Positions 11,731-12,294 are shown, counted from the stretch's first letter. The stretch: 12,733 nucleotides of DNA from a virus (IMGVR_UViG_2728369554_000005), one strand, 5' to 3'. The notes: generated by a model from the sequence alone, not told the origin. Numbers and translations: made by a program.

Positions 11731-11855
11731 AAAGATATTGCAGTAACGAACAGGCAGGACGCCCACGAAGTAGCCGCCTGGGGCATATGAAGTCCAGGAT
11801 GATTCGTTGAGTCATGTTGTGCCACTAGGCACTCATGTTAAAGCAGGTGTATGAA

Positions 11856-12131
11856 ATGAAAGTCCAGATTTTAAACAATAACTGTGAAGTCGTTTGGTCA
11901 TACGACATAGCCGCCCCTGTAGATCAGAGCGGCGATAGCTGGACCAATGGGAAACATCAGATTATGGCTGGAGTTGTGTTCTCTTTACGCCGTGCTTTGG
12001 AACAGGCTGAAGTATTTCCATCAGACCCTGAATGGAAATGGCCTTTTTCTATTTGTCCAAATTCGGAGAGCACATTTCAGAAAATTGGTCAGAAAGTCGC
12101 ACTCGAAGAGCATCAGCCAACTGTTTCCTGA
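11856..12131 (+). CDS. Hypothetical protein, first ORF downstream of candidate pL (not N-like)
   Basis: ATG at 11856 with SD aggtg 7 nt upstream; the track ORF begins at 11835. No Arg-rich motif. Overlaps a convergent minus-strand ORF by about 83 nt, so one of the two may be spurious. Confidence 0.35.
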   Translation: MKVQILNNNCEVVWSYDIAAPVDQSGDSWTNGKHQIMAGVVFSLRRALEQAEVFPSDPEWKWPFSICPNSESTFQKIGQKVALEEHQPTVS

Positions 12132-12294
12132 TTTTTTCAGGTAACTCGTCGGCATCGCAGAAACAACAACGCTCGATCATGTTGAAAGCCGATTCGTAGA
12201 ACTGTTTCTGCTGAGTGTCGCTGAGACAGGAAAAGAGCGACGTTACGATGATTTTATTAATTGCATTATCAAGTTCTTTTTCATCAAAAGTCAT
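12049..12294 (-). CDS. Hypothetical protein (convergent to the pL-proximal ORF)
   Basis: 81 aa ORF with a good SD (aaggaaaa) 5-8 nt upstream of the ATG. Helical-looking sequence with a CCFC motif. No family recognised. Confidence 0.4.
   Translation of the reverse strand: MTFDEKELDNAINKIIVTSLFSCLSDTQQKQFYESAFNMIERCCFCDADELPEKIRKQLADALRVRLSDQFSEMCSPNLDK

Follow-up and report, generated by a model that had tools for sequence, protein, structure and literature searches.

A conserved structured leader RNA after the pL promoter of an N-less lambdoid prophage of Escherichia coli, with an overlapping convergent gene pair downstream

In phage lambda, antitermination of early transcription involves the arginine-rich N protein, the boxA and boxB signals of the nut site and the host Nus factors. 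The antitermination leader of ribosomal RNA (rrn) operons carries a boxB hairpin, boxA and boxC, with NusA, NusB, NusE, NusG, SuhB and S4 as its protein factors. The only role of boxA that we know of is the recruitment of NusB/NusE to elongation complexes. In phage HK022, putL and putR are cis-acting antiterminator RNAs that bind the zinc-binding domain of the RNA polymerase beta' subunit (PMC9378689). A 2025 analysis of 314 lambdoid phages supposes that the N-less phage LLS may use a put-like mechanism (PMC12315714). Here we describe the early-left leader in a viral DNA stretch of 12,733 nucleotides (IMGVR_UViG_2728369554_000005; the whole stretch is called the window below), which represents the immunity region and early-left part of an E. 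coli lambdoid prophage of the SfV/CPS-53 type. The leader carries a structured RNA of about 65 nucleotides (nt) at positions 11743-11811 on the plus strand, just after the pL promoter. This RNA is new to Rfam and to genome annotation, and by analogy it may have an antitermination function. Two convergent genes with overlapping 3' ends, orf91 and orf81, lie downstream of it.

A preliminary description of this DNA had implied that the leader was empty, which proved to be wrong. The RNA is built of a closing helix and two hairpins, all on the plus strand. The closing helix, P1, has 6 base pairs (11745-11750 paired with 11803-11808). Inside it lie hairpin A (GGC-AGGAC-GCC, 11753-11763) and helix B, which has 5 base pairs (11777-11781 paired with 11794-11798) and the conserved loop GGCAUAUGAAGU, followed by the junction AUGA at 11799-11802. 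An invariant 23-nt core, GGCAGGACGCCCACGAAGTAGCC, spans positions 11753-11775.

The helices are supported by covariation. P1 occurs as AACGAA/UUCGUU, AGCGAA/UUCGCU, CCACC/GGUGG and GUCAUC/GAUGAC, and helix B as CCUGG/CCAGG, CCGGU/ACCGG, CUACC/GGUAG, CCGAC/GUCGG and others. In an alignment of 44 sequences, 94.8% of cells were paired, as against 74% in shuffled alignments and 23-44% when the partners were slid. All 11 variable pairs of this alignment change on both sides in a compensatory manner. RNAalifold independently gave the same fold. The short hairpin A helix is supported solely by the Providencia copy, where the GGC/GCC stem is kept and the loop is AAGGAAA instead of AGGAC. A covariance model of the element (R1) scores 92.9 bits on the window copy. 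In a search of Rfam, the leader RNA matched no family. Hammerhead and other small ribozymes, suggested by the strings GAUGA and CGAA, were also considered; they were rejected because the linkers are not conserved as the ribozyme cores require and Rfam gave no match.

The element is widespread. The exact core GGCAGGACGCCCACGAAGTAGCC was found in at least 120 IMG/VR contigs, with 92 distinct sequences among the matches listed. With up to two changes, the core is also present in Aeromonas phage pAEv1818, in T5-like phages of Providencia and in the Logan contig L011. The leader RNA was detected in 1,473 of the 5,426 complete E. coli genomes, and also in genomes of Kosakonia, Kluyvera and Leclercia. 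A 14-mer scan of genome contigs gave mostly chance matches, the true ones being those in the latter three genera and at two further loci. Phages of Salmonella, Klebsiella, Yersinia, Pectobacterium, Aeromonas and Providencia carry it as well. In none of the sampled genomes does a RefSeq annotation cover the leader RNA.

The position of the RNA is also conserved. Conservation with phages of other immunity types starts at 11745, about 15 nt into the transcript. In ST64B, ZF40, PHB10, pAEv1818, mEp237 and SfV, the RNA is in the early-left operon and is preceded by the repressor gene or by accessory genes lying downstream of that gene. A promoter scoring at least 9/12 was found within 90 nt upstream of the element in 68 of 115 distinct contexts, compared with 2.6% of control windows. 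In the contexts with such a promoter, 12-23 nt separate the end of the -10 hexamer from P1, apart from a single context where the gap is 6 nt. The window, with a -10 hexamer ending at 11723 and P1 beginning at 11745, agrees with put in this placement just downstream of pL. The first open reading frame (ORF) downstream of the element belongs to 41 unrelated clusters in 95 contexts. Thus, the element does not serve to regulate any single gene in particular. It is near certain that the leader RNA is a functional structured element, widespread and independent of the genes downstream.

The window contains a single copy of the element, as judged both by a search with up to 3 mismatches and by the covariance model with filters off. 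Across 100 IMG/VR loci of up to 15 kb, R1 gave 101 hits, none on the pR side. The only second copy, at L083 980-1035 on the minus strand, is weaker (41 bits) and has the same orientation as the main copy, from which it is about 610 nt downstream. As a separate observation, a module CGCGCA(G/U)CAGGU..ACGUUC(C/U)G followed by a GC-rich hairpin stands 10-60 nt after the element in L137, L098, L011, L136, L097, L008 and L093. This module recurs after the element in many phages without boxA.

The promoter ahead of the RNA lies at 11690-11723 on the plus strand, downstream of the repressor gene, with the -35 hexamer TTGACA (11695-11700), a 17-nt spacer and the -10 hexamer TAGATT (11718-11723), and scores 10/12 in the promoter scan. 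An operator half-site 8-mer, AGTTGTTG, is present in five copies in the window (0.5 copies are expected by chance). Four of them form inverted pairs, one at pR/pRM (10703 and 10732) and one at the promoter in question (11690-11697 on the plus strand and 11711-11718 on the minus strand), and the fifth is a stray. Since the inverted pairs occur only at pR/pRM and around the promoter at 11695-11723, the name pL is justified. A cI-type XRE/S24 repressor gene (10814-11500, plus strand) and a YdaS/Cro-like gene (10676-10428, minus strand) diverge from the pR/pRM region. E. coli 20Ec-P-124 is 99.9% identical to the window over 11500-12733, and phage SfV is 99.2% identical from 11745 onward. In RefSeq, the pL operon of the identical locus encodes YfdP, YfdQ, YfdR, a methyltransferase, an Ea22-like protein and DUF551 proteins, and no N.

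Among the described systems, put is one of those closest to the leader RNA. Both are compact multi-helix RNAs of roughly 65-75 nt that stand first in the pL transcript of an N-less lambdoid phage. Both have conserved unpaired or junction nucleotides, covarying helices and independence from downstream genes. Furthermore, the short strings ACGAAC and CAGGAUGA are common to the leader and to HK022 putL and putR, and a motif at the transcript start, CCATC..ACAGCGAA, is common to put-bearing and element-bearing phages. The element might accordingly be a diverged putL, acting as put does via the beta' zinc-binding domain. However, the reciprocal covariance models do not recognise each other's targets. 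A put model (R2) built from eight sites (HK022 L and R, phiEt88 L and R, UPF_BP1, HK639, CobraSix and S9-5) recovered all the putL and putR sites of the put-bearing loci that were searched, with 61-102 bits, but gave no match at E<=10 in window positions 11724-11860. Conversely, R1 gave no match in HK022 and HK639. BLAST searches started from putL and from the leader returned disjoint sets of phages.

The folds are also different. The element has a closing helix and two hairpins, whereas put has two stems arranged in a V and no closing helix. By the R2 search, the leader element lacks similarity to the known putL and putR sites, which have the conserved sequence CGAACGGC..GUCGG..GGCG..CAAU and two stems. 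In put, AGGAU forms the loop at the tip of stem II and lies away from the surface that binds the polymerase (numbering of PMC9378689), whereas in the leader this string comprises a helix strand and a junction, and is not equivalent to the put loop. Many members have CCACC or GUCAUC in place of the other string, ACGAAC. In addition, put has L and R copies, whereas the element is single and restricted to the pL side: no second copy was found downstream of pR, either in the 9672-9848 gap or in the rest of the window. From the reciprocal models and the non-equivalent positions of the shared strings, homology with put was rejected, and we consider a diverged putL very improbable. Judged by sequence and fold, the element is not a member of the put family; it is analogous to put in size, position, occurrence in N-less phages and covarying helices, and its antitermination role is an analogy only. 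The put-like sites annotated in GenBank for HK639, HK75 and O276 belong to the put family proper. Literature text searches, on core sequences of the element as well as on antitermination in SfV or of the put type, yielded no description of the element, a 2011 study of put-like RNAs being outside the search.

The comparison with lambda begins from the same genomic slot, directly downstream of a repressor-controlled pL. The preliminary description had noted no N-like antiterminator after pL and no convincing boxA/boxB nut site in the leader, and both points hold for the window. The first gene, orf91, encodes an acidic protein that is not arginine-rich (2 Arg, 6 Lys and 12 Asp+Glu; isoelectric point 5.0), and the RefSeq operon list is free of N. 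On the plus strand of 11724-11855, no boxA (CGCTCTTA or GCTCTTTA, with up to one mismatch) was found. The search of the leader for boxB gave only a simple hairpin with an ACUA loop at 11813-11837, and no GNRA-like boxB. The combination that marks a lambda nut site, a CGCUCUUA-like boxA with a boxB hairpin, is therefore absent from the leader of the window. A tblastn search with lambda N, Nun and gp24 over 1.29 Mb of element-bearing loci returned nothing with this limited set of queries.

We also considered whether orf91 could encode a novel protein antiterminator without arginine richness, which would recognise the leader RNA as a functional analogue of N. Its gene is the first after pL, and it directly follows the RNA element both in the window and in Salmonella L344. 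However, the element is associated with 41 unrelated first genes and is followed by orf91 in only 11 of the 95 contexts, and in Yersinia orf91 is upstream of the element. The acidity of the product is also unlike N. Moreover, the T5-like Providencia phage possesses the element and has no annotated orf91-like gene in the 3-kb stretch examined. We regard this idea as scarcely credible.

A boxA does occur after the element in a minority of its relatives, as in lambda-type leaders. In 10 of 68 contexts, the element is followed by a consensus boxA, GCTCTTTAA(C/A)AA, at a constant spacing of about 30 nt; the upstream control gave 0 such matches and the antisense control gave 2. In loci of the L115 type (L115, L108, L127, L129, L035, L075 and L090 among them), boxA is GCTCTTTAACAA and is preceded by a small hairpin. 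The order of hairpin and then boxA in this group of phages is that of the rrn leader, and the sequence after the hairpin, GCUCUUUAACAA, is what we take to be the rrn boxA consensus. In Providencia phage PR1 (L135 1503-1600), a virulent T5-like phage, boxA is CGCTCTTTAA, again about 30 nt downstream of the element, which itself is in the terminal repeat after a strong promoter. Nevertheless, the likeness to rrn leaders is partial, because the hairpin-boxA module is absent from the window and rrn leaders have no counterpart of the element.

Next to the RNA stands the gene pair. The preliminary description had reported two overlapping ORFs, one on the plus strand at 11835-12131 (98 amino acids) and one on the minus strand at 12049-12294 (81 amino acids), and the overlap of 83 nt at 12049-12131 was confirmed. 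The start of the plus-strand ORF was revised. The gene orf91 (11856-12131, plus strand) starts at ATG 11856 (MKVQIL...), 21 nt after the beginning of the 98-residue ORF. This is the RefSeq start, and it is kept in homologues down to 42% identity. Since ATG 11856 is preceded by AGGTG, the argument that the minus-strand ORF has the better Shine-Dalgarno (SD) sequence falls away. The upstream ATG at 11835 is buried in the hairpin mentioned above, CAUG..GUGCC-ACUA-GGCAC..CAUG (11813-11837, plus strand), which is stable (folding free energy (dG) -11.5 kcal/mol, z -3.4); none of 200 shuffled sequences folded as well.

The product of orf91 has 91 amino acids and belongs to the SfV orf33 family (PHROG 3195, E 6e-70). 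The gene orf81 (12049-12294, minus strand) encodes 81 amino acids that are predicted to be helical (PHROG 3311, E 1e-55), with a conserved RCC(F/Y)CDAD motif and an invariant MTFDE start. Both PHROG matches cover the full protein length, but by themselves they are weak evidence because most of the database relatives are near-identical. Neither protein matched Pfam, the named families of NCBIfam, the PADLOC defence profiles or sequences in the PDB. AlphaFold2 models made without alignments had predicted local distance difference test (pLDDT) values of 58 and 47, which are too low to justify a fold search.

Homology searches found relatives of both genes, kept as a convergent pair. Diverged copies are present in the Logan contig L011, in Klebsiella L345 and Salmonella L344, and in Yersinia L342. 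The proteins of these loci are 50-64% (orf91) and 58-62% (orf81) identical to those of the window, and in all four the genes are convergent with overlapping 3' ends. An exhaustive HMMER search extended the relatives of orf91 down to 42% identity, including forms of 170-198 amino acids with the domain at the C-terminal end, and homologues of orf81 with 58-64% identity are annotated in Klebsiella, Salmonella and Yersinia. A search for loci related by an orf81 alignment returned only near-identical copies. Three candidates for divergent protein relatives (P0009, P0015 and P0022) were rejected as frameshifted, near-identical DNA from raw assemblies.

Could only one of the two ORFs be a gene, the other being an accidental frame held open by codon constraints on the opposite strand? 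The annotations give this idea some footing. At the window locus, SfV and RefSeq annotate only the plus-strand ORF and leave out orf81, while in Klebsiella, Salmonella and Yersinia the NCBI annotation calls only the minus-strand ORF. Many of the seemingly divergent database matches are, moreover, frameshifted copies of near-identical DNA. However, the disagreement of annotators stems only from the avoidance of long overlaps by gene callers, which leads them to call one gene or the other. The substitution patterns also contradict it. In the comparison with L011, the differences at the three codon positions were [17,7,37] in the 64 non-overlapping codons of orf91, with 22 synonymous and 19 non-synonymous codon changes, and [14,4,30] in the 54 non-overlapping codons of orf81. 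The excess at the third position was found in the non-overlapping parts in all comparisons between the three lineages, Yersinia and Salmonella included; inside the overlap, the pattern is flat for orf91 and weaker for orf81. Both frames remain open at 50-64% amino-acid identity. An accidental frame is thus very improbable, and on the codon patterns orf91 and orf81 are both real protein-coding genes. The preliminary description had offered a choice between a left operon starting with an uncharacterised gene and a locus in which the minus-strand ORF alone is real and pL drives mainly antisense transcription. The first part is correct, and pL transcription would indeed run antisense into orf81, but orf81 is not the only gene. 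The annotation conflict is settled in this way: both overlapping genes are to be annotated, the plus-strand gene with its start at 11856.

The two genes form a conserved movable cassette, whose place in the pL leader differs from phage to phage. The cassette was found in 425-550 of the 5,426 complete E. coli genomes (about 8-10%). In many related phages, the leader RNA and a block like the small RNA (sRNA) STnc100 are near each other and the cassette is absent between them. In Yersinia L342, the order is pL, the CCATCAACAGTGA start, orf91, orf81, ATCAACAGCGAACA and the leader RNA, so that the cassette is upstream of the RNA and inside the pL operon. The overlap of the ORFs belongs to the cassette itself, since it is retained at every location of the cassette. 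In L342 (2300-3120), a motif ATCAACAG(T/C)GA was observed on both sides of the cassette, which suggests insertion or recombination at this motif.

Accessory-gene insertions of phages, known as morons, carry their own promoter and terminator. The cassette resembles them as a compact two-gene unit that is present or absent between conserved flanks, with a variable insertion point in the pL leader. In contrast to morons, no promoter or terminator could be shown for it, and the convergent arrangement with overlapping 3' ends is unusual. After induction, the convergent transcription from pL through orf81 would oppose the expression of orf81.

Upstream of orf81, a block at 12322-12362 contains 39 nt that are 100% identical between the window and L011 in a pairwise alignment, whereas the adjacent coding sequence has diverged by about 30%. 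The block includes a hairpin, ACCAC-N10-GTGGT (12331-12350); in L342 and L344 its stem persists while the loop differs. Read on the orf81 strand, the block is a 5' leader, followed by UCCUUUU, which is able to pair with the SD sequence of orf81. This pairing covaries in three lineages, as read by eye (UCCUUUU/AAAAGGA, UCCUUC/GAAGGA and UCUUGGU/ACCAAGA). These sequence features suggest that the block could serve as a translational control element or an operator for orf81.

An STnc100-like sRNA module, at 12374-12596 on the plus strand, separates the gene pair from yfdP. It matches the full-length Rfam model RF02076 with 41.2 bits (E 3e-6). Similar copies are present in SfV, ST64B, L010 and L011, and those of related loci score up to 50.8 bits (L010). 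The blocks GGUGAAUGCGGCU..GCGCACGCGG and CACCGGGAGGCACCCGGCACC are conserved, and the closing helix covaries with that of L011 (GUGGUG/CACCAC versus GCGGUG/CGCCGC). The module shares with the prophage sRNAs STnc100/PasD (RF02076; bioRxiv 10.64898/2026.05.13.724894) the GGUGAAU...CACCGGGAGGCACCCGGCACCA core, the terminator hairpin and the prophage location. It differs from them in scoring under the gathering threshold of 47, and it is thus probably a diverged relative of STnc100. An intrinsic terminator ends the module, with a 13-bp stem at 12548-12588 followed by U5 (dG -23.8 kcal/mol, z -3.6). Another terminator, annotated as rho-independent in the GenBank entry of SfV and corresponding to window positions 12282-12314, is not credible (dG -2.3 kcal/mol, z +0.5) and overlaps the start of orf81.

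From the position of these features, the following course of early-left transcription may be proposed. Transcription from the repressor-controlled pL would start at about 11730, and within about 15 nt the transcript would make the leader RNA, folded around its almost invariant core. It would then read orf91, run head-on into orf81 (12294-12049), cross the STnc100-like module with its terminator and continue to yfdP, yfdQ, yfdR and beyond. The leader RNA would act in cis, its target being either its own elongation complex or a conserved host component (RNA polymerase or the Nus proteins, for example), and would make the transcription from pL resist pausing, Rho and the terminator at 12548-12596. 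A role in elongation is consistent with the promoter-proximal position, the independence from downstream genes, the lack of N relatives in the loci searched and in the RefSeq operon and the boxA found in some contexts. The terminator that stands between the gene pair and yfdP also points in this direction.

Several observations weigh against this proposal. A strict scan of 58 contexts found a sense-strand intrinsic terminator in the 1.5 kb downstream in only 2 of them; a general need for reading through canonical terminators is thus not evident. The STnc100 motif is downstream of the element in only 40 of 115 contexts. boxA follows the element in a minority of contexts and not in the window, and no second copy was found on the pR side, unlike put or nut. 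The closing helix and two hairpins with conserved junctions would also fit an aptamer that binds a ligand or protein. The function of the RNA is read from its position and from analogy. As for the gene pair, a promoter for orf81 was looked for and none was identified, and both AlphaFold models are of low confidence. Considering the few terminators, the absence of boxA from the window, the lack of a pR copy and the aptamer-compatible layout, we hold the antitermination-like reading, in which the RNA modifies elongation in cis and fills the role of lambda N/nut or HK022 put, to be a serious possibility that is nonetheless well short of probable.

The RNA may also be real without being an antiterminator. 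It could stabilise the transcript against RNases, form a site or decoy for a host RNA-binding protein of the CsrA type, or be a riboswitch-like aptamer that adjusts early-left expression to a host metabolite. Canonical terminators are not enriched downstream of the element, it is single-copy on the pL side only, and P1 with two hairpins and invariant junction and loop nucleotides is a classic aptamer layout. As to CsrA, GGA strings are present: AGGA in the loop of hairpin A is invariant, and GGAUGA is found in most copies (at CAGGAUGA). However, the second GGA is missing in some members, such as ZF40, which has GUAGAUGA. Moreover, no conserved expression platform, that is, a terminator or an SD-sequestering helix, follows P1, and the sequences downstream fall into about 66 unrelated groups. 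The consensus boxA after the element in two unrelated contexts points instead to control of elongation. We consider a role of this kind plausible, though it would be imprudent to expect it.

With similar caution, the leader RNA may be a third type of early-operon processivity element of enterobacterial phages, structurally unrelated to N/nut and put, a view that we find attractive while not counting on it. That such an element would act alone, or with the host Nus machinery where boxA follows, is likewise tentative. For the explanation as a whole, namely an N-less prophage with a real gene pair and a leader RNA in the role of N/nut or put, the chances appear to us evenly balanced.

Some further features were observed elsewhere in these genomes. 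On the minus strand of SfV (L001 813-1001) and ST64B (L005 242-430), isrK and a C4 antisense RNA, which are P1/P7-type immunity RNAs, are present in the pR operon. An Rfam scan found neither isrK nor C4 in the window, despite the pL side common to it and to SfV and ST64B; thus, the right arm has been exchanged. In the gap between ymfL and the DUF4222 gene (9745-9860, minus strand), the end of an ORF has a zinc-ribbon-like CxxC...CxxC tail and may be a small unannotated gene. At 2363-2582 on the minus strand, a weak full-length match to the Rfam SgrS model was obtained (29.4 bits versus a gathering threshold of 37, E 7e-5). The matched segment, which a Qrr match overlaps, closes with a strong terminator hairpin, GCCAUCAGAG..CUGAUGGCC, and U6. 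This segment may be a prophage sRNA near the late-regulation region.

Lambdoid phages without N are common, and specialists assume that they may use a put-like mechanism, with no element identified. The leader RNA provides a concrete candidate for this element. If it is indeed a third type of processivity element, it would explain early-left expression in N-less lambdoid prophages, which are present in about one quarter of the complete E. coli genomes, and in some T5-like phages. Should the element act by modifying RNA polymerase, antitermination by RNA alone would have been invented independently a second time. Otherwise, it would still be a structured RNA that is abundant and calls for explanation, at a step central to the regulation of prophage induction.

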